Positions 6,007 to 51,308 of a DNA stretch of 64,000 bases are shown piece by piece. Numbering within the stretch: the stretch's first letter is position 1; the number at the start of each line of letters is the position of its first letter. Source of the DNA: a plasmid; sequence record NZ_CP090684.1. One strand, given 5' to 3'. Both the position numbers and the translations under genes were made by a program. The notes under the pieces were generated by a model. It was not told the origin of the DNA. It saw nothing but the letters and a program-made list of their open reading frames with translations, and made no database searches.

Positions 6007-9000
6007 TTGCCCGGCTCATCCGCTGGTCCATCCACAACCGCTTCCTGGTGTTGCTCGCGACCGTGCTCGTAACGGGTTGGGGCCTGTACTCGGTCGCCGA
6101 GACACCGCTCGATGCACTGCCCGACCTGTCCGACACGCAGGTCATCATCAAAGCGTCGTATCCGGGCAAGGCGCCGCAGGTCATCGAGGACCAGGTGACG
6201 TACCCGCTCACGACGACGCTGCTCGGCGTGCCGGGGGCGAAGACCATCCGTGCGTACTCGTCGTTCGGCGATGCGTTCGTCTATGTGCTGTTCGACGACA
6301 AGACCGACCAGTATTGGGCACGTTCGCGCGTGCTCGAGTACCTGAATCAGGTGCAAAGCCGCCTGCCGCAAGGTGCGACGGTCTCGCTCGGTCCGGACGC
6401 GACCGGCGTGGGCTGGGTGTACGAGTATGCGCTCGTCGACAGGAGCGGACGGCATGACCTCGGTCAGCTGCGCGCGCTGAACGACTGGTTCCTGAAGTTC
6501 GAGCTGAAAGCAGTGCCGGATGTCTCCGAGGTCGCCAGCATCGGCGGCATGGTGCGCCAGTATCAGGTCGTGCTCGACCCGGACAAGCTGCGCGCGTACG
6601 GCATCACGCAGGCCGCGGTGGCCGATGCGCTTGGCAAGGCGAATCAGGAGTCGGGCGGCTCGGTGGTGGAGATGGCCGAGTCCGAGTACATGGTGCGCTC
6701 GTCTGGCTACCTGCGCTCGCTCGACGATTTCCGGCATGTCGTATTGCGGACCAACGACGCCGGCACGCCGGTGCTGCTGGGCGACGTCGCACGCATCCAG
6801 ATCGGCCCCGAGATGCGTCGCGGCATCGCGGAGCTGAACGGCCAGGGCGAGGTCGCCGGCGGCGTCATCGTGATGCGCTCGGGCAAGAATGCGCTGAAGA
6901 CCATCGATGCGGTCAAGGCGAAGCTCGCCGACCTGAAGCGCTCGCTGCCACCCGGCGTCGAAGTGGTCACCACCTACGACCGATCGCAACTCATCGAACG
7001 AGCGGTGGACAACCTGAAGGACAAGCTCATCGAGGAGTTCATCATCGTCGGGCTCGTCTGTGCCGTGTTCCTGTTTCACCTGCGCAGCGCGTTCGTCGCC
7101 ATTCTGTCGTTGCCGCTTGGCGTGCTGGCCGCGTTCATTGTGATGCGCTATCAGGGAGTCAACGCGAACCTGATGTCGCTTGGCGGCATCGCGATCGCGA
7201 TCGGCGCAATGATCGACGCGGCCATCGTGATGATCGAGAACGCGCACAAACACCTGGAAGCGTTCGATCATGAGCATCCCGATACACGGATGACCGCCGC
7301 TCAACGCTGGGAGCTCATCGCGACTTCGGCCGCCGAGGTTGGGCCGGCATTGTTTTTCTCGCTGCTCATCATCACGCTGTCGTTCATTCCGGTGTTCTCG
7401 CTCGAAGGACAGGAAGGCAAGCTGTTCTCGCCGCTGGCGTTCACGAAGACCTACACGATCGCGGCGGCGGCCGGCTTGTCGGTCACACTCGTGCCCGTGT
7501 TGATGGGCTATCTGATCCGCGGGCGGATTCCGCACGAAAACGCGAACCCGATCAACCGCGTGCTGATACGGTTGTATCGTCCGTTGCTCGAGGCGACGTT
7601 GCGTCGGCCGTGGACAGCCATTGGTCTCGCGGCGGTTGCCTTGGTGCTCACGATCGTTCCGATTTCGCGTCTAGGCGGCGAATTCATGCCACCACTCGAC
7701 GAGGGCGATCTGTTGTATATGCCGACCGCGCTCCCGGGCATTTCGGCCCAGAAAGCGAGCGAACTGCTGCAGCAGACCGATCGCCTGATCAAGACCGTGC
7801 CCGAGGTCGAGACGGTATTCGGCAAGTCTGGTCGCGCGGATACGGCCACGGACCCGGCGCCACTCGAGATGTTCGAGACCACCATTCAGTTCAAGCCGCG
7901 TAGCCAGTGGCGGCCGGGCATGACGCCGGAGAAGCTGGTCGATGAGCTGGATCGGACGGTCAAGGTGCCCGGTCTGTCGAACGTATGGGTGCCGCCGATC
8001 CGCAATCGTCTCGACATGTTGTCGACCGGCATCAAGACGCCGGTGGGTGTCAAGATTTCCGGGCCGGACCTGACGCAAATCGATCGTATCGCGACCCAGG
8101 TCGAAACGGCCGTCAAAGGTGTGCCTGGCGTGACGTCGGCACTCGCGGAACGGCTGAACGGCGGACGCTATATCGACGTGGATATCGACCGGCTTGCCGC
8201 GGCCCGCTACGGACTGTCGGTGGCCGATATCCAGTCGGTCGTGTCCTCGGCGGTGGGCGGCGAGAACGTCGGCGAGGTAATTGCGGGGCGTGAGCGTTTC
8301 CCCATCAACATCCGTTATCCACGCGAAATTCGCGACTCGCTCGAGAAATTGCGACAGTTGCCGGTCGTCACTGACCGCGGCGCGCAAATCCAGCTCGGCG
8401 ACGTCGCGCACATCACGATCGCCGACGGCCCACCGATGATTCGCAGCGAAAACGCACGGCTCTCCGGATATGTCTATGTCGATATCCGCAACACCGACCT
8501 GCAGTCCGCCGTGAAGGCGATGCAGAAGGTTGTGGCCGAGCAGGTCCAATTGCCACCCGGTTATTCGATTGCGTGGTCGGGCCAGTTCGAGTACCTGGAA
8601 CGCGCGGCGGCCAAGCTGCGCACGGTGGTCCCCGTCACGCTCGTCGTCATCTTCGTGCTGCTGTTCCTGACCTTCAACTCGGCTGCCGATGCGCTGCTGC
8701 TGATGTCGACCGTACCGTTTGCGCTGGTCGGCGGGTTCTGGCTCATCTGGATGCTCGGCCATGCGGTGTCGGTTGCGACGTCAGTCGGATTCATCGCGCT
8801 CGCGGGCGTCGCTGCCGAATTCGGCGTGGTGATGCTGCTGTACCTGAAAGGCGCGCTCAATCGCCGGCTGGAGGATGGCGAGCCGCTCACCGAGGCGCTG
8901 CTGTTCGATGCGATCCGCGAAGGCGCCGTGCTGCGCGTGCGGCCGAAGGCCATGACGGTGGCCGTCGTGCTCGCGGGCCTCATTCCCATCATGGTCGGAC

Positions 9001-25469: not shown

Positions 25470-26594
25470 CTATGTCCCAGCAATCAGTTCAAGCTGGCCA
25501 ACGTCTCGCGCGTCCGAATCCCAGCGGCGCAGCGCGTAGTACCACTTTGACAGCTTCTTGGCCAGCAACTCACGATGAATGCTCGCTGTGAGTTGCTCGT
25601 CCTGCCGTCGGTTGTCACGGTCGCACCGAAAGAAGACGACCATTGCCTTGTCGTCGTCGAGCGCTATGTGAAATTCCGGCAGTTTGTCCGCTTTCATGGC
25701 CGCAATGAGATCTCTGCGGAAATACTTAAGTGCTTGAGCGGACCCCGACTTGCCGTAGAGCTTTTCAAGGCCGATTTTGAACCACAGCTTGTCACCACAG
25801 TGCTTCTTGGCCAAATCGTAAAGGCGACGCTCAAGACCTTGCCCCAAATCGAAGTAACCCGGATGTAGGGTTAGGATGCGCCGACTCAGCAACAAATCGT
25901 AGGTCCAACTCGACAATACTAGCTCGACCTCCAGCGCCCCTTTCCGATTGGCGGTATACGTGATCACCGAATATTCCTGGATCAACCCGTATCCGCGTAA
26001 GGTCTCGTGGATCCCGGCTTCATTGGCACCCGGGCGCGTCGTATCGAAATTTGTTTCGATGATGGTGCCTTTCAAGCGTCGGCAGCTATCAACGATGCGC
26101 TCATACGAAGCGCCGCCCGTACTGCGTCGGGTGTATTTGAGAAAGTCACGGACCTTGAATCGGATTCGGCGTGAAACCGGGATATCGGAGTCGGCCGCCT
26201 TGCAAATCAGTGTAGCGGCGTAGACGAGCAGATCCTTATCGAAGATATTTGCCGCCCCCACCCCGCTTGGGATGATTCTGACGATTTGTTCGCCGTTGCG
26301 GTAGACGCGAACCCGCGTGTCTTTGCCCTTTTGCAGTGAGAAAAGGGGGAACTCGAGAGAATGAAGGTCCTCGCGGGGCTTCCAGGACAAGTCAAGTTGC
26401 TCGCCGAAAAACAGTTCGAGCTGCTCTGGATCGAACTCGCCCTCGTCCAGTCGAACGACATCATCGCCGTCGGCTGAGTTTTCCGATTGCTCAGCGCCTT
26501 GGCTGCGTGCCAATGGTGGTCGTGCGCCCATCGGCAACTGCGCCGCTCCTGCCCCCCTCAGTGAGTAGCTGTTCTCGGAATTGACTGTACTCAT
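25470..26594 (-). CDS. repA: Plasmid-type replication initiator protein (RepA/RPA family-like)
   Basis: 374 aa. Positioned after the korA-korB-incC-like genes. Resembles 'replication initiator protein A' of Proteobacterial plasmids and islands. Confidence 0.6.
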   Translation of the reverse strand: MSTVNSENSYSLRGAGAAQLPMGARPPLARSQGAEQSENSADGDDVVRLDEGEFDPEQLELFFGEQLDLSWKPREDLHSLEFPLFSLQKGKDTRVRVYRNGEQIVRIIPSGVGAANIFDKDLLVYAATLICKAADSDIPVSRRIRFKVRDFLKYTRRSTGGASYERIVDSCRRLKGTIIETNFDTTRPGANEAGIHETLRGYGLIQEYSVITYTANRKGALEVELVLSSWTYDLLLSRRILTLHPGYFDLGQGLERRLYDLAKKHCGDKLWFKIGLEKLYGKSGSAQALKYFRRDLIAAMKADKLPEFHIALDDDKAMVVFFRCDRDNRRQDEQLTASIHRELLAKKLSKWYYALRRWDSDARDVGQLELIAGT

Positions 26595-26616
26595 TCTCTC
26601 CTGCTTTCCCCGTATT

Positions 26617-27027
26617 TCATTCCAGCTTGCTCGTTTGCGTGCCGAGATGTTTGATCAGGGCAGACACTGCCGACTGGACTTTATTCGTATCTTTCGATCG
26701 TTGTGCCTTCGCAAGGAAGCGCGCGAGCGGTTCGACAAGCGGGCTCGGCACTTCGAATTCCTGCTTTAGCCAGACGATGACCTCCGCACTTCGCAGTTCC
26801 GAGTTCGTCAGGCTCTCGTAGTAGCGCTTCACCAACTGGCTGACGCGTTGTCGAGAAACCCCAAATTCACTCGCAACGTCCGCCGCCGGCCGCCCGTCGA
26901 CGATCACGGCGCGTGCGATATCGCGAGTAGCTTCGTCAAACGGACGTGTCCCGAACTCGCGCGCGTGCTTCCGCATGGCGGAGTCCAATGCTGAAAAATG
27001 CTTCGCTGAAAGGCGGAATGTAGCCAA
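26617..27027 (-). CDS. KorA/TrfB-like HTH transcriptional repressor
   Basis: HTH ADVASEFGVSRQRVSQLVKRY. Located between parB and repA. Confidence 0.5.
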   Translation of the reverse strand: MATFRLSAKHFSALDSAMRKHAREFGTRPFDEATRDIARAVIVDGRPAADVASEFGVSRQRVSQLVKRYYESLTNSELRSAEVIVWLKQEFEVPSPLVEPLARFLAKAQRSKDTNKVQSAVSALIKHLGTQTSKLE

Positions 27028-27089
27028 GATTGCTTTCCGAATAGGTTGACAAGCAACGAACTGGCGCCTGCCCGCCTCGGTCCGTTGCG

Positions 27090-28448
27090 TTACAGCGACC
27101 AGTCGTTCGGCGCCAGAGGATGAATTTCGCGGTCGGTATCGTAACCGAAGTCATCTGGCAGAACGCCGGGTCGCCGGCACGGATGCAATCTGTTCAGCAG
27201 CTCGAGCGGCCCACTCGAATTTATTTCATCATTGAACCTGTTTATTATTTTACCCGCTGTTTCAGTTGGCATGCCAGCAAGCGCCGAGGCAGCCAGGTCC
27301 ACAAAGCAGACCCACAACCTCCATTCGATGTCCTCCGCACGCACGCCAGCCGCCGAAAGGTCGGCGTGCAACCGGCGAACTCTCTCGACGGATCCGGTGC
27401 CGATTTCGTAGATTTCCTCTACGCGCCAAACCGACGTCTCACTCGGATCGGCGGCGGCAGCGTGCAAACGCTTCGCTTTGGGTACTTGCCGCAGCCCCTC
27501 CGGAGATGCCGCCGGGCTCGGAGCTAGGCGAGCGTCCGCCATATTCGGCACATCGGCATCATGTTCTGCGCCGTGGGCCGCCTGACCCTCGAATACAGGA
27601 CCAGGTGACGGTTGTTGGCCATCGTCAATGGACTGCGATGCAGTAGAACCCGGTGCCTCGGCCGGCGCGCTCGAGCGAGCCATAGCAGCTGCCTCGCCGA
27701 CCGCATCTTTCACCGACGGAGCGGCGACCTGCTTCAGCAGGTTCAGTCGCGCATCGAGCGTCAAGCGTCCGAACTTCTTTCCTGCCCGCATGTCCGTTGC
27801 GATTTCGTGCGCAGTCGCGGCACTGCAAGCCTCGATGTCGGCCATTTTGTTGGCCGCTTCGACGTCGTCGAACATGTCCTCATCGAACAAGGCTCGGGTC
27901 GTGGGACCATAACGAAGGAACCGCAAGTGTTTCGAGACCCATGACGCGCTGCGCTCCTTGCCGCTCGGCGCCGCCCAGATGCTGGCTGCTTGCTCTCGCC
28001 CGTACAACTCGACGTCTGTCGCAAGGCCGATAGCCGTCTCTCTCACCGAGAGTTGCTTTCGATCGATGTTCTCGGACACCTGATACATCCGGATTGCCAA
28101 GTCTGACGTCCCGGCGGGGAAAATCTTTGCCTGTATCTCCGGCCAGTCGTTCAAAAGGCTGCCTCGGATGCGCCGCTCGCCGGCGATCAGCTCATACTCG
28201 TCGCTGTCCGAAATTGCTCGCACCAATATCGGCGTGTGCACGTGACCGATCGCCCGAAGCCGCTCGGCGAACGCCTGCACATCGGCGAAATCGTCGCGAA
28301 CTTGAGGTTTGATCCGAACTTTATTGACCGCGATGAACCTCGTCACCGCCCCTGTGGCCTGCTCGATTTCAGCCACACGCGATGCCGCGCTTGCCGCTCG
28401 AGTCAGTGCCGAAATAGAAGCAAACTTCCCGCTTGTCGCCTGCTGCAT
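27090..28448 (-). CDS. parB: ParB/KorB-like partition protein (ParB N-terminal nuclease-like domain)
   Basis: ParB box ELIAGERRIRGS. Downstream of the ParA ATPase. Confidence 0.7.
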   Translation of the reverse strand: MQQATSGKFASISALTRAASAASRVAEIEQATGAVTRFIAVNKVRIKPQVRDDFADVQAFAERLRAIGHVHTPILVRAISDSDEYELIAGERRIRGSLLNDWPEIQAKIFPAGTSDLAIRMYQVSENIDRKQLSVRETAIGLATDVELYGREQAASIWAAPSGKERSASWVSKHLRFLRYGPTTRALFDEDMFDDVEAANKMADIEACSAATAHEIATDMRAGKKFGRLTLDARLNLLKQVAAPSVKDAVGEAAAMARSSAPAEAPGSTASQSIDDGQQPSPGPVFEGQAAHGAEHDADVPNMADARLAPSPAASPEGLRQVPKAKRLHAAAADPSETSVWRVEEIYEIGTGSVERVRRLHADLSAAGVRAEDIEWRLWVCFVDLAASALAGMPTETAGKIINRFNDEINSSGPLELLNRLHPCRRPGVLPDDFGYDTDREIHPLAPNDWSL

Positions 28449-28462
28449 TCAACGACCCCTCT

Positions 28463-29305
28463 TTATGCGTTGCTCACCGAAAGGCCGATGCGCTCCAAAA
28501 TGGAGTCGCACACGGCGTGCATTTCTTTCGCAGCAAGCCGATCACTTTCGCCCCTCCGACGCGCCCACACCGGATGAAAACTTGTCAGGCGGACCCCCGC
28601 ACGATCGCGCAATTCGTGTTCGAGTACTGCGTCGTCGAACGCATTCCGAACAGTCGTCCTCATCGATTGGTCATCGGCGCGTCGCAGATTGACCTTGTTG
28701 AGCAGAACGCCCACCAGCTCGAGATCCGGATTCCATTCGCGCTTGACGAGCTCAAGCTTCTCCGACGTACTGAGAAGGCCCGACATACTGTCAATTCCGA
28801 GATCAGTCGGAATCACGACGTAGTCGGCGCAGATCATCCCGCCCAACACGAGGTTGCTCATCGTTGGCGCGGTGTCGATCACGCACAGATCAAATTGGTC
28901 CGCCAGTGCATCCAAGGATTCCCGCGCCTTCGCCGCTGATTCGAGCGGCCAAGTCATGACGTCCTCGAGCTCCGGCGTCGCGCCGATCATTGCCGCCCCG
29001 TCGACAATTCGCATTGGATTGACGTCCCGTTTGCCCTGGTAGAGCAAGTGCGCACTCGAATTTTCTGTCACATCCGGTAGGCCCAAGTGCTCCCATGTAA
29101 GTGCCGCGCCCATCACCGACGGACCCGACTTCGCGGTCAGCTTTCGGTACAGCATCGACCTTGTCAGATTGCCTTGCGGATCCAGATCCACCACCAACAC
29201 GCGGATCCCTCGCTCGATTGCCGTGTAGACCAGATGCCGAACAATAGTCGTCTTGCCGGTGCCGCCCTTCCCATTCACGATGCTTATCTTCTTCATGGCC
29301 ACCAT
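28463..29305 (-). CDS. parA: ParA/IncC partition ATPase
   Basis: Deviant Walker A KGGTGKTT. Confidence 0.9.
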   Translation of the reverse strand: MVAMKKISIVNGKGGTGKTTIVRHLVYTAIERGIRVLVVDLDPQGNLTRSMLYRKLTAKSGPSVMGAALTWEHLGLPDVTENSSAHLLYQGKRDVNPMRIVDGAAMIGATPELEDVMTWPLESAAKARESLDALADQFDLCVIDTAPTMSNLVLGGMICADYVVIPTDLGIDSMSGLLSTSEKLELVKREWNPDLELVGVLLNKVNLRRADDQSMRTTVRNAFDDAVLEHELRDRAGVRLTSFHPVWARRRGESDRLAAKEMHAVCDSILERIGLSVSNA

Positions 29306-29306
29306 C

Positions 29307-29690
29307 TCATGCGCAGGCCAGTGCTTCGATTGGCTGAAACGAGCGGCCCAACGTATGGAAGACCGCTAGCCAGTTCGCCGCATAAACATTCACGCGCCCG
29401 CTCGCCACACTGAAGTAACCGCCTTGCTCCAGCTGGGTTACGCATGCTGTGCCTCGCATCAGATCTACGTCGAAGCAAATGCGGGATTGGGAACGCCGGT
29501 GGTCACCGGCAATATCCTGTGCAATCTCGATCTCGAGATGGCCGTCAACTCCATCGTCGATCGTGCAATGAACCGCCATATCCCCCGGCACGCGCGGTGG
29601 AGCAAACCGTGTTCGTGATGCGCTCACCCCCAGCTCCGGAATGAGGTCGACAAGAAGTCGGTAGATGCGGGATTGCACGGTGCTCGACAT
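29307..29690 (-). CDS. Hypothetical protein, first gene of par/rep operon
   Basis: Start MSSTVQSRIYRLL with GGAG RBS. 2-nt gap to parA. Confidence 0.4.
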   Translation of the reverse strand: MSSTVQSRIYRLLVDLIPELGVSASRTRFAPPRVPGDMAVHCTIDDGVDGHLEIEIAQDIAGDHRRSQSRICFDVDLMRGTACVTQLEQGGYFSVASGRVNVYAANWLAVFHTLGRSFQPIEALACA

Positions 29691-29777
29691 TTGGTTCTCC
29701 ATCTTTTTTTGGTTGCTCTTTTTCCGGCGTTGGCACACCGCCGGACCTCGTAGTTCTTTCATCTTATTATTAGATAC

Positions 29778-29790
29778 GTTGACGGTCAAC
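29778..29790. promoter_or_regulatory. Perfect inverted repeat GTTGAC-G-GTCAAC in the par/rep operon promoter region (candidate KorA/ParA operator)
   Basis: Palindrome in the AT-rich leader about 90 bp upstream of the first operon gene. Confidence 0.4.
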
Positions 29791-30253
29791 ATATCTAGGT
29801 TGAATGCTGGCGAAATCGTGCGGTCGAACGCTCTGGGCTGTTGAAATTGAACGCTGAGAGCCAGGTCCCCAAGGCGGACAGCATTTCGCTCGCCTGCGAT
29901 ATATAATTTTAATCACTTATCACAGTGATCTATTTTCGCATGCGAAACCGCTTACCTCCAAGCATTCGAGCTGGAGTGCATAGAATGAGCGCTCGAAGTG
30001 TGTTTGCCGCGCCACAAAGCGGCCTGCTCGGGCCGCGCAGATTTCCGACTTCCCCTTTGTCCAACCGACCTGCATCACATTGCGCTGCGTTAAGCCGCGC
30101 CGCATCCTGCATCGGACGGCTCGGTGAAACCGCCGGAGCAAAGAGGCTGGTCCGGTAAAATGGGGCCACATTAAAAACGTAAGCACCCGCAGCGGGATCA
30201 TATCCGATCTAGGTCAAAATGGGATAGCCACTGGAACGGGCGAGCATTCGGAT

Positions 30254-39337: not shown

Positions 39338-39745
39338 CTACGCAGGCCGGAGCCAGTTTTCGACGGCGAGTCCTGTAACGCGAGTGAATTCGGCCGTATT
39401 GTCCGTGACCAAGACGGCGTCGACGGCCATCGCGTGGGCAGCGATCAGCATGTCGTTCGCCCCGATCAACTGACCCTGCCTCTCGAGATCGGCTCGCAGC
39501 CGCCCGTAGCACTGATCCGCGTCGGACTGCAGCGGTAATACGGTCAAGCTCGCGAGCAGCTGCTCGACACGCTGGGCGAGCGCCGAGGAGCCGCGCTTAC
39601 AGACGCCGTACCGTAGCTCGGCCGCGACGACGATCGAGGTGCACACTTGCTCGGGCCGCGTTTCCCCGATGCGCGAAGCGCATGCGCCCCGTGGGTCTCG
39701 GATCACGTTCGACAAAATATTGGTGTCGAGCAGATAGAGGCTCAT
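39338..39745 (-). CDS. vapC: VapC PIN-domain toxin
   Basis: MSLYLLDTNILSNVIRDPRG, the PIN acidic residue pattern. Confidence 0.9.
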   Translation of the reverse strand: MSLYLLDTNILSNVIRDPRGACASRIGETRPEQVCTSIVVAAELRYGVCKRGSSALAQRVEQLLASLTVLPLQSDADQCYGRLRADLERQGQLIGANDMLIAAHAMAVDAVLVTDNTAEFTRVTGLAVENWLRPA

Positions 39746-39984
39746 TCAATATCGACCGGTTCAGCGGGGAGGTTTTCGATGTCAGGGAAAGTTTCGTCCA
39801 AGGGCGCCCATTGCGCAAATAGCTCGCGTAGAGACGGCGCTTCGACCGGTTCGATGATTAGGCGCCGGCCTTCACGATGAATAGTGACTTCCGAGACCGG
39901 CAGCTCGAACTCGCGCGGGATCCGCACGGCCTGGCTACGTCCGTTGCGAAATAGGCGTGCGTGGCGGGTGTCATGGGTTGGCAT
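39742..39984 (-). CDS. vapB: VapB antitoxin (AbrB/SpoVT-like)
   Basis: 80 aa. Overlaps vapC by 4 nt. Confidence 0.85.
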   Translation of the reverse strand: MPTHDTRHARLFRNGRSQAVRIPREFELPVSEVTIHREGRRLIIEPVEAPSLRELFAQWAPLDETFPDIENLPAEPVDIE

Positions 39985-40085: not shown

Positions 40086-41117
40086 TTATCTGCGGCTACC
40101 TGCGCCCTTCGGGCTGGCCGGATTTTCGCGGGAAACTGTGCGTGCCGGCTTGTCGGCGCGCAGCCCGCAAAAAGACGGATGCCGTAACCGGCCGGCCGGC
40201 GTCCACTCGAGAAACGCCACTTCGGCGACGAGGTCGGGCTTCAGCCAGTGAAACTCACGATCGACCTCAGGGTCGGGGGCGCTGGCAAACGGCGAGCGTT
40301 TGCGGCCCAACGCCGAGAGCCGACTCTCGAATTCCCGAGCCTGTCGCGGCGTAAAGCTCGGCGCGACGTGGCCGACATAGCGCAGGCGACCACCCTCCTC
40401 GTACACGCCCAACAGCAACGCCCGCACCCCTGCTGTCGCCCCTTTCCGGCGGGAAAACCCGCCGATCACGAACTCCTGGCGTCTGACACATTTCAATTTG
40501 ATCCACCGATCCGACCGTCCGGACCGATACGGTGCGTCGATTTGCTTGCCAATGATGCCTTCGAGGCCGAGCTCACATGCGGATGCCAGCATGGCGGACG
40601 CATCTGCCTCGATCGCCTCGGAAAATCGAACCTCCTCCCGAAGAACTTCACCGATGATTCCCGTTAGAGCGGATCGGCGCTCGTGCCATGGCCGACGGCG
40701 AAGGTCAGTGTCGTCTATCCACATAAGGTCGAAGACCACAAGACATATACCGGTGGTACGCCGACTGTTGAATGCTTCCTGCAGACGGCTGAAGTTAGGG
40801 CGCCCATCGGGGGCGAAACATACGGCCTCGGCATCAAGCCACGCGCGTTGGACCGGTAACCTCTTCAGGACCGCGGTCAGGTGCGGGAGCTTACTCGTCC
40901 AATCGTGGCCATTCCTTGTATAGAGCCGTACGTCACCATCATCGACGCGCACGAGCATCCGGTAACCGTCGAACTTTATCTCGTAGGCCCAATCTCCCGC
41001 CGGCGGCGGCTCGGACATTAGCACGGCCAAGGCAGGCGCAATGAATTCGGACATGCGCGCATTCTTGGCTACGACCACCCCCGCTCGGGTCTTTTGTGCT
41101 GTTGTACGCCGTTGCAT
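40086..41117 (-). CDS. ATP-dependent DNA ligase (LigD ligase-domain type, stand-alone)
   Basis: Motif I EIKFDGYR plus the downstream adenylation/OB region. Start likely at internal Met 41117 or 41054, because the parS palindrome at 41204-41219 lies in the annotated 5' extension. Confidence 0.7.
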   Translation of the reverse strand: MQRRTTAQKTRAGVVVAKNARMSEFIAPALAVLMSEPPPAGDWAYEIKFDGYRMLVRVDDGDVRLYTRNGHDWTSKLPHLTAVLKRLPVQRAWLDAEAVCFAPDGRPNFSRLQEAFNSRRTTGICLVVFDLMWIDDTDLRRRPWHERRSALTGIIGEVLREEVRFSEAIEADASAMLASACELGLEGIIGKQIDAPYRSGRSDRWIKLKCVRRQEFVIGGFSRRKGATAGVRALLLGVYEEGGRLRYVGHVAPSFTPRQAREFESRLSALGRKRSPFASAPDPEVDREFHWLKPDLVAEVAFLEWTPAGRLRHPSFCGLRADKPARTVSRENPASPKGAGSRR

Positions 41118-41203
41118 ACGGCCTCCCTCTTGCCGATCGGAATGCGCGCAATCGAGCGCAATCGATATACCCGACGGCCTTCGCAATTGACCGAGGCTTG
41201 CAC

Positions 41204-41219
41204 CTTGGCTCGAGCCAAG
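41204..41219. repeat. parS-like 16-bp perfect palindrome CTTGGCTCGAGCCAAG (copy 1)
   Basis: Self-complementary 16-mer. Four copies cluster around parAB. Confidence 0.65.
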
Positions 41220-41402
41220 ATCTCGGCGATCCATCGGGGTCAGCTTCCACTGCTTCAGCCGATACTCGATCCTGCTCTGGATTTGCAGGTCTTGCTGGCT
41301 ATCGGCACAAGAGCGAGTCCTTGACGATCTGGCTGGCGCGATACGCTCTTGCAGGTGCCATGTCCGGCTGGCGAGCGACGTTCATTGGAACGTCTTTGCG
41401 GT

Positions 41403-41418
41403 CTTGGCTCGAGCCAAG
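41403..41418. repeat. parS-like palindrome CTTGGCTCGAGCCAAG (copy 2)
   Basis: Identical 16-mer. Confidence 0.65.
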
Positions 41419-41459
41419 ATGCGCGCAGGCAACGCCAATTCAGACGTGGCTGCGGTGAT

Positions 41460-41475
41460 CTTGGCTCGAGCCAAT
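41460..41475. repeat. parS-like palindrome, 15/16 match (copy 3)
   Basis: CTTGGCTCGAGCCAAT. Confidence 0.6.
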
Positions 41476-41610
41476 CGCATAGCGGGCCCGAAGCGTTGTA
41501 GTGCGACCACATTTATAAGTCTTTTTTCGGGATTTTTACTCGGTTGATTGACATAGTTTGTTGGTCGAATGACAATCCGATCGTCGAAACATGCTTCGAG
41601 CGGAGGTTAA

Positions 41611-42282
41611 ATGGTCATCACCATCGGTGCGGAAAAAGGCGGCGTTGCGAAGACACGATTAGCGACGCACATCGCGGCATTAGCTGCGAGCGAGGGAGTG
41701 GACGTGGTTCTTCTCGATACGGACAAACAGGGGTCCGCTATGAGCTGGTCGCGAATTCGAAATGAGGAAGGCGTCACACCTTCCATCCCTGTACTCGCGC
41801 TCCCGGCGAATCCCGCACGCGAGCTAGCGAATCTGGCAAACAAGTACACGCTAGTGGTGGTTGATATCGGGGCGCAAAACTACCGGACCATGCTGGAATG
41901 CGCACTTTTATCCGATCTCGTGCTAGTTCCGTGTGGTCCCGACCAACAGGAAGTTGAATCAACTCTCAACGTTTTTGCGACCCTTAAGGACATGGGGCCC
42001 AGGCACGAGAGTGGGGAAATCCCAGCCTACGTTGTTCTTACGCGAGTTTCGCCGATTGAAGGATCCAAGGCGACGGCGGAACTGAGAAGCTATTTCAAAA
42101 GCGAAGATATCCGGTTGTTTGATTCGCAGATTCCCCAGCGGGAAGCATGGCGCGCGACCGGCAAGACTGGACGCGCGGTTCACGAGCTGAAAGGCCGCGA
42201 TCGTTCCAAAAAAGCGATTGAAGAGATGGAAGCGGTCTACCGGGAAATCATTAAGCGGATCAATGGTGGGGAGGAGGAATAA
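41611..42282 (+). CDS. parA: ParA-family partition ATPase (small type)
   Basis: Walker A GAEKGGVAKT. Confidence 0.85.
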   Translation: MVITIGAEKGGVAKTRLATHIAALAASEGVDVVLLDTDKQGSAMSWSRIRNEEGVTPSIPVLALPANPARELANLANKYTLVVVDIGAQNYRTMLECALLSDLVLVPCGPDQQEVESTLNVFATLKDMGPRHESGEIPAYVVLTRVSPIEGSKATAELRSYFKSEDIRLFDSQIPQREAWRATGKTGRAVHELKGRDRSKKAIEEMEAVYREIIKRINGGEEE

Positions 42283-43247
42283 TGGCTACTTTCCGGAAAA
42301 AGGCGGTTGATATCGAACGAGTGGCAGCCGTCGAGGATGCAGCTTCGTCGGCGCCGATCGTCGGCGACCCTCGCTTGGCACCGACGATGCCCTCAGTTTC
42401 GCAGCGTGAGAGCGGGGCGGTTGGCTCGAGCCAAGACCCTAGGAAGTATGAGGTTGGACACGTATATGAAATCCCGATTGGCAAAATAAGATCAAATTCT
42501 GTCAATCCAAGAGCGATCTACACCGCTTCTGCTGTCTCCGAGATGGCGGAATCTCTCCTCGCGCGGGGCCAAGGTCAAGCCGCGATCGGCTATGTCAACG
42601 ATGACGCAGAGATTGTGCTCATCGACGGCGAGCGGCGGCTTCGCGGCGCTCGGACTGCCGGCCTTTCGACCCTGCGGATCGAGATTCGTCCGAAGCCCGG
42701 AAGCGAGCGCGAGCTTTATGAGGAAGCCCGGGCTGCGAACGTAGAGCGGAAGGATCAAAGCCCGTTGGACGACGCTATCAAATGGAAGGAGTTGATCGCG
42801 CGGAAGATCTATCCCACGCAAGCGGCGCTTGCTAAGGCGCTGAATCTCGGCGAAGACCACGTGAGCCGCACATTGTCTCTCGCCCAATTGCCGAACAAGC
42901 TTGTCCAAGCAGCGGCGGAGCACCCGGAACTTCTTTCTCTCAAAATGCTGAACGCCATTCGAGAGTTCTGGGAAGTGAAGGGGGACGATGAAACTCTCGA
43001 GCTGATTTCCGAGGCTGCGAAGAATGGGCTGGGGTATCGCGACGTAGCCGCTCGCCGTAAGGCCGCTGCAAAAGGACCGGTTCGGCGGCCGCGGTCGACG
43101 CGGGAACAGCTGAGTTTTCGAGGAGCGAAGGGGGAGTTTAAGTCTTTTGAAGAGGACGGCCGGATCGAGTTGAAGCTGAAGGGCTTGGCACCGGACGTCG
43201 CGGCCGAGATCAGTGAAAAAATCTTGGCTCTTTTCCCGAAGGAGTAG
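42282..43247 (+). CDS. parB: ParB partition protein
   Basis: ParB box LIDGERRLRGA. Contains the fourth parS-like copy internally. Confidence 0.85.
   Translation: MATFRKKAVDIERVAAVEDAASSAPIVGDPRLAPTMPSVSQRESGAVGSSQDPRKYEVGHVYEIPIGKIRSNSVNPRAIYTASAVSEMAESLLARGQGQAAIGYVNDDAEIVLIDGERRLRGARTAGLSTLRIEIRPKPGSERELYEEARAANVERKDQSPLDDAIKWKELIARKIYPTQAALAKALNLGEDHVSRTLSLAQLPNKLVQAAAEHPELLSLKMLNAIREFWEVKGDDETLELISEAAKNGLGYRDVAARRKAAAKGPVRRPRSTREQLSFRGAKGEFKSFEEDGRIELKLKGLAPDVAAEISEKILALFPKE
42420..42435. repeat. parS-like palindrome inside parB (copy 4, inner 14 bp perfect)
   Basis: GTTGGCTCGAGCCAAG. Confidence 0.6.
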
Positions 43248-43359
43248 GGGGCGCTGCTGCTTCGCAGCGCAAGCGGGTTACCGACACAGGGGCTAGAGGA
43301 CGTTGAGCTGGGATGTGCTGCGCTGTGCAACTGTGCACGGCTGCAGCATCTGGAAACTA

Positions 43360-43960
43360 TCGGCTCTGGAGCGATGGGTTCTCTTTACATCCTGTAAGAA
43401 AGTCTCGTGCTTGGAGCGATGGTGTATGACGTTCCTCCAGCGATGGTGCAGACGCGGCGGGCTTGAGCGCGAGAGTGTGTGCTCACCTTGCTTTGCGCAT
43501 CTCGGGTCGTTCTTCCAGCGATGCTTCTCGTCGAGAATCGTTCCTCCAGCGATGTTTGTGGGTGACTCGGCGGCCGGTACTGTCGTTCATGGAGCGATGA
43601 GTGACGGATCCACCGTGAGATTGTTGGGCTGCAGGTATCGTGCTTCCAGCGATGGATGACATGATTAGAAAAAGATTAAAGACGATTAGGCTTTGTGGAA
43701 AACATAGGTAGCCCACTGATTGCAAAGAGGTTTTTTGCGGATCGTGCTCGCTGGAAGAACGATAGATGCATCGCTGGCGATACGATGCACGCCTCGCTGG
43801 AGAGACGATGGGCAACGCTGCAGGAACGACAGAGGTTGCACGCTGGAGGAACGAGGAACATCGCTGCAGGAACGACTGCGCCGCGATACCTCGCTGGAGG
43901 GACGATAGTCCCGTAGTTTTTTTGCTGAACCATCGCTGGAGAGACGAGACAAGGGTCTTG
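43360..43960. repeat. Iteron-type origin of vegetative replication (oriV): about 15 direct repeats flanking an AT-rich core
   Basis: Seven copies of (C/T)(C/T)(G/C)(G/C)AGCGATG(G) at 43366-43655. AT-rich segment 43656-43700. Eight about 17-bp iterons CGCTGGAGnnACGAnnG at 43749-43950 with about 21-25 bp spacing. Immediately upstream of the trfA-like gene. Confidence 0.75.
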
Positions 43961-43991: not shown

Positions 43992-44849
43992 ATGGCAAAT
44001 TCCATCGTCGACCACGTGAAAGCGATTGCGGCCCGCGCTAGCAGCGCGGGCGCTGAAACGCAATCTCATCCGACACAGATTCCGCTGTGGCCGCCGAACG
44101 TTCGTGGTATGCCAAACGCGCTAGCGCGCTCGGCTCTGTTCAACGTCAACAAGTCGAATGCGCCGCGTAGCAGGATGGAGAAAGCGCTGATTGCAAGTGT
44201 TGATGGGGTGGAAATAACGTTCAGTGGGGAAGAGCTTAGACAGGACGATGCGGACGTCTTTCTAGAAGTGCTTCACTTGGCTAGAGACACGCAGCTGAAC
44301 GAGAAGGTGGAATTCACGGGCTACAGCGTACTGAAGTCTCTCGGGTGGGGCACGTCTGTGAAATGTTACGACCGACTCGTGACGACGCTGGAACGACTGC
44401 AGGCAGGGCAGGTGAAAGTGCGTTTCTCCGGCAACAAAAAGGGGTTCGTCGGCTCGTTAATCCGGAAGTTCCTGTGGAAAGAGGGCACTGAAACGGGAAC
44501 TGACGGGAAGACGAGGTGGGTGGCGTACGTAGAACCCGAGATCGTGGCGCTTTTCTCCGATGACGATTACACGCGACTCGCGCGCGAGCAACGCCAACGG
44601 TTGCGATATGAATTGTCGAAATGGCTGCACACCTACTACCACACGCATGCAGTGCCTTACGCGCATTCCGTTCGTTTCCTTCATCGTCAGTGTGGTTCGC
44701 AGACCAAAGAGTTGTTTCACTTTCGCGCGAACTTGAAAAAGGCGCTTGATGAACTTGTAAAGGAAGGCTTCCTGGTGAGCTGGACGATCGACAAGAACGA
44801 TTTGGTCCATGTTGTTCGCGCGTCGGCTCGCGGGGCAATTGCCGCGTAA
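43992..44849 (+). CDS. trfA: TrfA-like plasmid replication initiator
   Basis: 285 aa. Lies downstream of the iteron array. The IPLWPPNVRGMPNALARSALF region resembles TrfA-family initiators. Confidence 0.65.
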   Translation: MANSIVDHVKAIAARASSAGAETQSHPTQIPLWPPNVRGMPNALARSALFNVNKSNAPRSRMEKALIASVDGVEITFSGEELRQDDADVFLEVLHLARDTQLNEKVEFTGYSVLKSLGWGTSVKCYDRLVTTLERLQAGQVKVRFSGNKKGFVGSLIRKFLWKEGTETGTDGKTRWVAYVEPEIVALFSDDDYTRLAREQRQRLRYELSKWLHTYYHTHAVPYAHSVRFLHRQCGSQTKELFHFRANLKKALDELVKEGFLVSWTIDKNDLVHVVRASARGAIAA

Positions 44850-50710: not shown

Positions 50711-51289
50711 CTAGTGCAACGCGAAGTACGCTGATGCGCTGATTCCAACGATCGCAAGCAGCGGCCAAGATCTTCCAGCTAGCCGCAAATCGGTAGGCGA
50801 CGGCCAAGCTCCAACAAGAAGCTGGGCGAGTCCAAACCAGATCGCGATATCCGACGCCTCTAACGTGGCCAAGGTACGTGTCCGCCACAACGCCGACGCC
50901 GCGGCGATCGGCAAGCTTAGGAGTGGCGCGAGCGCCGCCGGCGCCGCGTTCCACCAACGCACATTTTCGAAGGCGACCATCCCATAAACGTATACCCCAT
51001 TGGGTGACCGATGCGGAAATATAGAGAGCCTCGTTGGGCGAGCCCACACGAGGTGGCCAACGACAAAGTGCAATAATTCGTGCGCAATCGTCGCCGGCAA
51101 GCAAAGTGCAGCGAAGAGGGCGCCGCTCCGCGCGAATTTCAGAAGTAGGGCAGCCCCTGCGATCGGCGGCAGCAGATAAAGCATGGCGGCGCACAGATGC
51201 GTTGAATACAGGACACTCGAGTGGGCCACTTTGGCGAATGGGGATGGAACGATTGCAGATGGAGTGACGAAGCAACGAGCCTTTCGCAT
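50711..51289 (-). CDS. Membrane protein with HExxH motif (putative intramembrane metallopeptidase, DUF3267-like)
   Basis: IAHELLHFVVGH lies within a TM region. Last gene of a 3-gene minus-strand cluster. Start may be the internal Met 51184. Confidence 0.45.
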   Translation of the reverse strand: MRKARCFVTPSAIVPSPFAKVAHSSVLYSTHLCAAMLYLLPPIAGAALLLKFARSGALFAALCLPATIAHELLHFVVGHLVWARPTRLSIFPHRSPNGVYVYGMVAFENVRWWNAAPAALAPLLSLPIAAASALWRTRTLATLEASDIAIWFGLAQLLVGAWPSPTDLRLAGRSWPLLAIVGISASAYFALH

Positions 51290-51308
51290 GCGAAAGGCTC
51301 TGGATGTC

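Follow-up and report, generated by a model that had tools for sequence, protein, structure and literature searches.

The locus described here is best compared with the partition system of plasmid pBC of Burkholderia cenocepacia J2315, whose centromere, parS-pBC (also parS-p1), and ParAB proteins are reportedly the subject of primary papers by Dubarry et al. 2006 and Passot et al. 2012. The pBC Par system has been classed among the 'Bsr' (Burkholderiales secondary replicon) systems, and SPRi has shown that parS-pBC is bound specifically by ParB-pBC (PMC5450999, S1 File Fig C). In these assays the wild-type probe S38wt, listed as CttggctcgagccaaG, gave a score of 43±4 with ParB-pBC, compared with 6±1 for random DNA (Pillet et al. 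2017, PMC5450999). Binding fell to background when positions 2, 3, 4 and 6 were changed symmetrically, and positions 2-4 and 6, together with most changes at positions 5 and 7, were found to be intolerant; position 1/16 was the most change-tolerant of parS-pBC, with scores of 38±3 for the C1G probe GttggctcgagccaaG and 34±1 for the double 1/16 A/T variant ATTGGCTCGAGCCAAT, and half-sites sufficed for good binding (PMC5450999). An 'internal parSp1 site' in parBp1 has also been reported, in a study where excess parS, supplied by the natural p1 cluster, delayed colony appearance and led to anucleate cells (Du et al. 2016, PMC4948915). According to these two papers, which cite earlier work, centromere activity in vivo has been reported for the J2315 systems (PMC5450999, PMC4948915).

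Related centromeres share much of this architecture. Those of other Bsr systems, such as parS-c3 (GTTGTCACGTGACAAC) and parS-G4/12D (GTTTCAACGTTGAAAC), are likewise 16-bp palindromes with a T-rich 5' end and a central CG, and they too are bound by a ParB dimer through its helix-turn-helix (HTH) and are replicon-specific. ParB-pBC and ParB-c3 are only 31% identical, and no cross-binding has been reported within J2315. The symmetric changes C1G, G5T and T7A turn parS-pBC into parS-c3 (PMC5450999), in agreement with the three symmetric position pairs (1/16, 5/12 and 7/10) at which parS-c3 differs from the motif described below. The chromosomal parS, TGTTNCACGTGAAACA, is also a 16-bp palindrome with a central CG, recognized by Spo0J/ParB proteins that carry an N-terminal domain with a GERRxRA CTP-binding box followed by an HTH, but its sequence is different and its copies are dispersed around oriC. 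In IncP-1 plasmids, the OB operators of the ParB homolog KorB are spread over many plasmid promoters. None of chromosomal parS, parS-c3 and IncP OB was found in the window, by which we mean the whole 64-kb stretch of DNA that was analysed.

It had been predicted from the sequence of the window that four copies of a 16-bp palindrome, three upstream of parA and a fourth within parB, mark a plasmid centromere whose sequence is not that of chromosomal parS. This prediction is supported. A mismatch-tolerant search returned the same coordinates and mismatch counts, the gene context agrees with the ORF listing and with Pfam (Table 1), and the motif differs from chromosomal parS. Moreover, the 16-mer is letter-for-letter identical to parS-pBC, and the adjoining ParB is 84% identical to ParB-pBC of pBCJ2315 over all 321 residues without a gap, with only one residue distinguishing the two proteins in the HTH stretch PTQAALAKALNLGEDHVSRTLSLAQLP.

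Table 1. Features of the candidate centromere and its surroundings; positions are those of the window.
Feature	Position	Strand	Description	Basis
ligD	40086-41054	-	ATP-dependent LigD-type DNA ligase gene, divergent from parAB	
parS copy 1	41204-41219		exact CTTGGCTCGAGCCAAG	mismatch-tolerant search
parS copy 2	41403-41418		exact CTTGGCTCGAGCCAAG; flanks lengthen the palindrome to 18 bp, TCTTGGCTCGAGCCAAGA	mismatch-tolerant search
parS copy 3	41460-41475		CTTGGCTCGAGCCAAT, G16T, perfect 14-bp core; promoter-proximal copy	mismatch-tolerant search
Predicted parAB promoter	41548-41576	+	TTGACA, 17-nt spacer, GACAAT; sigma-70-like	consensus scan only
parA	41611-42282	+	223-aa Walker-type partition ATPase	Pfam CbiA/AAA_31/VirC1
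parB	42282-43247	+	321-aa ParB/Spo0J-type centromere-binding protein; GERRLRGA box and HTH	Pfam ParB_N
parS copy 4	42420-42435		GTTGGCTCGAGCCAAG, C1G; in parB, codons V47-Q51 and first base of D52	mismatch-tolerant search
Iterons (~17-20 bp)	43353-43657 and 43747-43947		two oppositely oriented sets between parB and trfA	repeat search
trfA	43992-44849	+	plasmid replication initiator; annotated trfA in relatives	Pfam TrfA, 2.1e-34

The perfect 14-bp core TTGGCTCGAGCCAA is kept in all four copies and is the sole 14-bp perfect palindrome with more than two copies in the 64-kb window. Sites with at most one mismatch number four, all within 41204-42435, while 0.42 matches with up to three mismatches would be expected by chance, and none of 100 dinucleotide-preserving shuffles of the window gave five. 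The only additional match in the window at this threshold lies at 44276 within trfA; it was rejected as a fifth site, as its three mismatches fall at internal positions (8, 12 and 14) and it is missing from the closest relative. A search for further copies across the replicon found none away from parAB, either in the 64-kb window or in the complete 162-kb relative NZ_CP048444.1, which holds the same four sites only at up to three mismatches. A long mechanically called ORF (40086-41234, minus strand) includes copy 1, which lies ~150 bp upstream of the divergent ligD start, with the parA ATG 392 bp downstream; since the ligD start in the 97.6%-identical plasmid corresponds to window position 41054, copies 1-3 can all be placed in the 556-bp divergent ligD/parA intergenic region.

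The two departures from the exact 16-mer fall at the tolerant position 1/16, and both have counterparts in the published binding data. The sequence of copy 4, GTTGGCTCGAGCCAAG, is exactly that of the C1G probe, and ATTGGCTCGAGCCAAT is the symmetric form of the G16T change in copy 3 (41460). We conclude, with a probability of roughly 0.93, that a type I ParABS system of the pBC lineage ('Bsr'), on a B. multivorans-type conjugative plasmid, has the four palindromes as its parS sites. By analogy with its ortholog ParB-pBC of J2315, this ParB would be expected to bind the sites as its cognate targets, and we infer such binding by the plasmid's own ParB, along with CTP clamping, partition activity and autoregulation.

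The proteins are consistent with this assignment. ParB scores 34.2 bits against Pfam ParB_N (cut-off 26.3 bits) and aligns to crystal structures of Spo0J/ParB/Noc proteins over the CTP-binding N-terminal domain and the HTH. Its GERRLRGA motif aligns with GERRFRAA, the CTP-binding box of B. subtilis Spo0J (6sdk), and, judged by an N-terminal domain with a GERRxRA box followed by an HTH, the protein appears to fit the family of CTP-dependent clamps. ParA, at 223 aa and without an N-terminal HTH extension, is small and of plasmid type; this, together with the clustering of the sites at the par operon, sets the system apart from chromosomal parS and its dispersed copies. ParB is 100% identical to that of NZ_CP048444.1, while 16% of its residues differ from ParB-pBC, which counts against the pBC-type reading.

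The window is from a B. multivorans-type conjugative plasmid: the region is 97.6% identical to the 162-kb conjugative B. multivorans plasmid NZ_CP048444.1 and ~81% identical to B. cenocepacia pBCEN1232, and about 55 further Burkholderia plasmids, pBCJ2315 among them, match its trfA region at ~83% identity. The host plasmid is ~160 kb, compared with 92.7 kb for pBC, yet pBC has the same gene order (vapBC-ligD-parA-parB-iterons-trfA), with ParA 95% and TrfA ~97% identical, as well as the identical 16-bp palindrome, a ligD-parA upstream cluster and a parB-internal copy with the C1G change at identical codons. The arrangement of the upstream sites is not the same. In pBC, three perfect-core copies lie ~100 and 53 bp apart and are accompanied by a fourth, degenerate copy CGTGGCTCGGGCCAAG, whereas the three upstream copies in the window are spaced by 199 bp (copies 1-2) and 57 bp (copies 2-3). 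Plasmids of the pBC lineage more generally have 3-4 upstream copies ~50-100 bp apart, a tighter spacing that weighs against our assignment, and their promoter-proximal copy carries A10G (CTTGGCTCGGGCCAAG), while in the window this copy has a perfect core but G16T. These differences in spacing and copies from pBC are minor architectural variations.

The layout extends beyond the closest relatives. Each of pBCJ2315, pBCEN1232, B. contaminans p875 and the B. cenocepacia 'toggle2' plasmid has an upstream cluster and one site at the same parB codons, and the layout is kept in five Burkholderia plasmids and in Polaromonas naphthalenivorans pPNAP01, where ParB is 59% identical and the sites are slightly variant (e.g. 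CTTGGCGCGAGCCAAG within parB). For a B. glumae plasmid, whose record starts ~100 bp before parA, only the parB-internal site is visible. When the two-copy DNA pattern was searched with one genome per species, all four Burkholderia contigs found had parA and parB adjoining the sites; the pattern also turned up in two unrelated settings, a Curvibacter contig and Prevotellaceae/Bacteroidaceae genomes, which are taken up below. In an alignment of the intergenic region from six plasmids, the sites stand out as invariant islands amid diverged DNA, with copies 1 and 2 conserved and the -35 TTGAC conserved likewise. Because the parB-internal 16-mer is nearly invariant across six plasmids while the flanking N-terminal codons vary, the comparison indicates that the constraint on this site acts at the DNA level.

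We propose that a dimer of the 321-aa ParB would recognize each 16-bp palindrome through its HTH, with one monomer per 8-bp arm. Since this ParB retains the GERRxRA CTP-binding box, the parS-bound dimer would then probably close as a CTP-dependent clamp and slide or spread onto flanking DNA, as in related proteins. A single partition complex would thus cover ~1.2 kb of DNA around the parA promoter and in the 5' portion of the operon, and the 223-aa ParA, in its ATP-bound form on the nucleoid, would position and separate plasmid copies. The promoter-proximal site and the parB-internal site would plausibly also let ParB damp parAB expression. The centromere lies within ~1 kb of an iteron/trfA origin found within ~1 kb downstream of parB, and a location near the origin is usual for the centromeres of low-copy plasmids. 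The iteron sets, each of at least six iterons with the core TCGTTCNTCCAGCGATG and its reverse complement, are the putative oriV of the TrfA replicon, adjoining the centromere; iterons have also been described for J2315 replicons (PMC4948915).

The position of copy 4 raises the question of whether it has a role of its own. In Burkholderia and Polaromonas alike the site occupies the same codons (~47-52), and all its bases are constrained although neighbouring codons drift; for this reason its function might go beyond that of a spare centromere copy. It is a tentative suggestion, and one we consider rather improbable as a whole, that the parB-internal site is a dedicated autoregulatory element, serving as a ParB clamp-loading site or as a roadblock in the operon that sets the ParA:ParB ratio, and that copy 1 may link the expression of ligD, the divergent NHEJ ligase gene, to occupancy by ParB. 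A rival explanation is that the palindromes act solely in transcriptional control, as operators for autoregulation of parAB and/or the divergent ligD by ParB or another repressor, and that they have no role as a centromere. Their location in a divergent promoter region, with one copy within parB, would suit such a role, and an internal parS in the parB of chromosome 2 has been presumed to lower parB expression (PMC4948915). However, none of the four sites overlaps the predicted -35 or -10, the nearest (copy 3) lying ~73 bp upstream of the -35; a GGAGG ribosome-binding site separates this predicted promoter from the parA ATG at 41611. Moreover, the identical sequence has been treated as the pBC centromere (PMC5450999), and the p1 cluster as excess parS (PMC4948915). 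As ParABS systems normally combine regulation with centromere function, control of transcription would be an added role rather than an alternative one, and an operator-only function is very unlikely.

Still less probable is that a KorB-like global regulator controls many plasmid operons through these sites as its operators, as in IncP-1. ParB homologs such as KorB do act as global regulators, the initiator of this replicon is TrfA, and in a Curvibacter contig at least three separate clusters of the same 16-mer lie close to genes other than partition genes. The sites of our plasmid are nonetheless confined to the par locus, both in the 64-kb window and in the whole 162-kb relative, rather than spread over many promoters; OB itself is missing from the window, and the ParB is orthologous to one that has been demonstrated to bind a centromere. 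The Curvibacter sp. PD_MW3 contig (NSIV01000002.1, 529 kb) holds 13 copies of the 16-mer with at most one mismatch, 11 of them exact and most sharing TCTTGG...CCAAGA flanks. They fall in three separate, non-overlapping 8-kb loci (locus positions 600-2210, 6825-6905 and 77-160), include one five-copy array with ~60-bp spacing upstream of an HD-domain gene, and adjoin DUF4007/PAPS-reductase and Cap4-nuclease-type genes. No homologs of ParA, ParB or TrfA were found within these three 8-kb loci, and the copies could represent a centromere or a regulon of the pBC type in an element of the Comamonadaceae.

The least credible proposal, that the sites arose by chance or are repeats without function (XhoI-containing palindromes, REP/MITE-type) or targets of a second ParB-like protein (452 aa, 27090-28448), can draw on the occurrence of the 14-bp core in dispersed 22-bp tandem repeats of Prevotellaceae metagenome-assembled genomes (MAGs) without ParB context, which shows that the core can arise in unrelated repeats. 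Against it, far fewer than one match is expected by chance, plasmids whose ParB is as little as 59% identical to the 321-aa protein still have the sites alongside it, no copy of the 16-mer lies near the second par module, and the chance and mobile-repeat readings are effectively refuted by this conservation and by the binding data published for the identical sequence. In the Prevotellaceae/Bacteroidaceae MAGs, TTGGCTCGAGCCAA occurs in short tandem arrays with a 22-bp period and with A/T, not C/G, at positions 1 and 16. These arrays are scattered over many contigs of a few rumen/gut MAGs and look like an unrelated dispersed repeat family.

The feature is already known, in that an orthologous centromere has been published and characterised by experiment: its motif, role, upstream clustering and parB-internal copy have all been published for the orthologous plasmid. 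The result identifies the centromere and the partition/incompatibility type of this Burkholderia plasmid, placing it in the same specificity group as pBCJ2315, and it leads us to predict that pBC-type plasmids would be incompatible with it in partition. Apart from correct annotation the result is of little consequence, other than in showing that a real parS can be recovered by reading sequence alone. The comparative data are incremental, taking the parS-pBC layout to Polaromonas and hinting at its use in Curvibacter.

In addition to the centromere, we observed several features elsewhere in the window. A VapBC (PIN/MazE-type) toxin-antitoxin pair (39338-39984, minus strand) lies with ligD immediately upstream of and divergent from parAB, in a vapBC-ligD-parAB-trfA order that is common to pBCJ2315, pBCEN1232 and p875. 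A single isolated GTTTCAGCGTTGAAAC at 2646-2661 is one mismatch from the Bsr3-type parS-G4/12D, and 13 of 100 shuffles gave a match to that centromere with up to three mismatches.

A second replication and partition module is found at 25470-29792 on the minus strand, ~12 kb from the parAB locus, and the presence of this second ParA/ParB-like pair is a further point against our preferred reading. Its genes encode a 161-aa ORF, a ParA (280 aa), a ParB_N protein (452 aa), a KorA/TrfB-like repressor (136 aa) and an RPA-family initiator (374 aa). A search of the window for a repeated palindrome that might serve as the centromere of this module (25-30 kb) gave nothing convincing. The exact 14-bp palindrome TTTCGCATGCGAAA, present in two copies, was considered and rejected: one copy (29934-29947) lies ~140 bp upstream of the second par operon, while the other (51282-51295) forms part of a 20-bp palindrome that directly follows a minus-strand ORF and may belong to a terminator hairpin, and the pairing of the two may be a coincidence. 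The module is also annotated in NZ_CP048444.1 and, because it supplies a second set of replication and partition functions, the plasmid looks like a two-replicon cointegrate.
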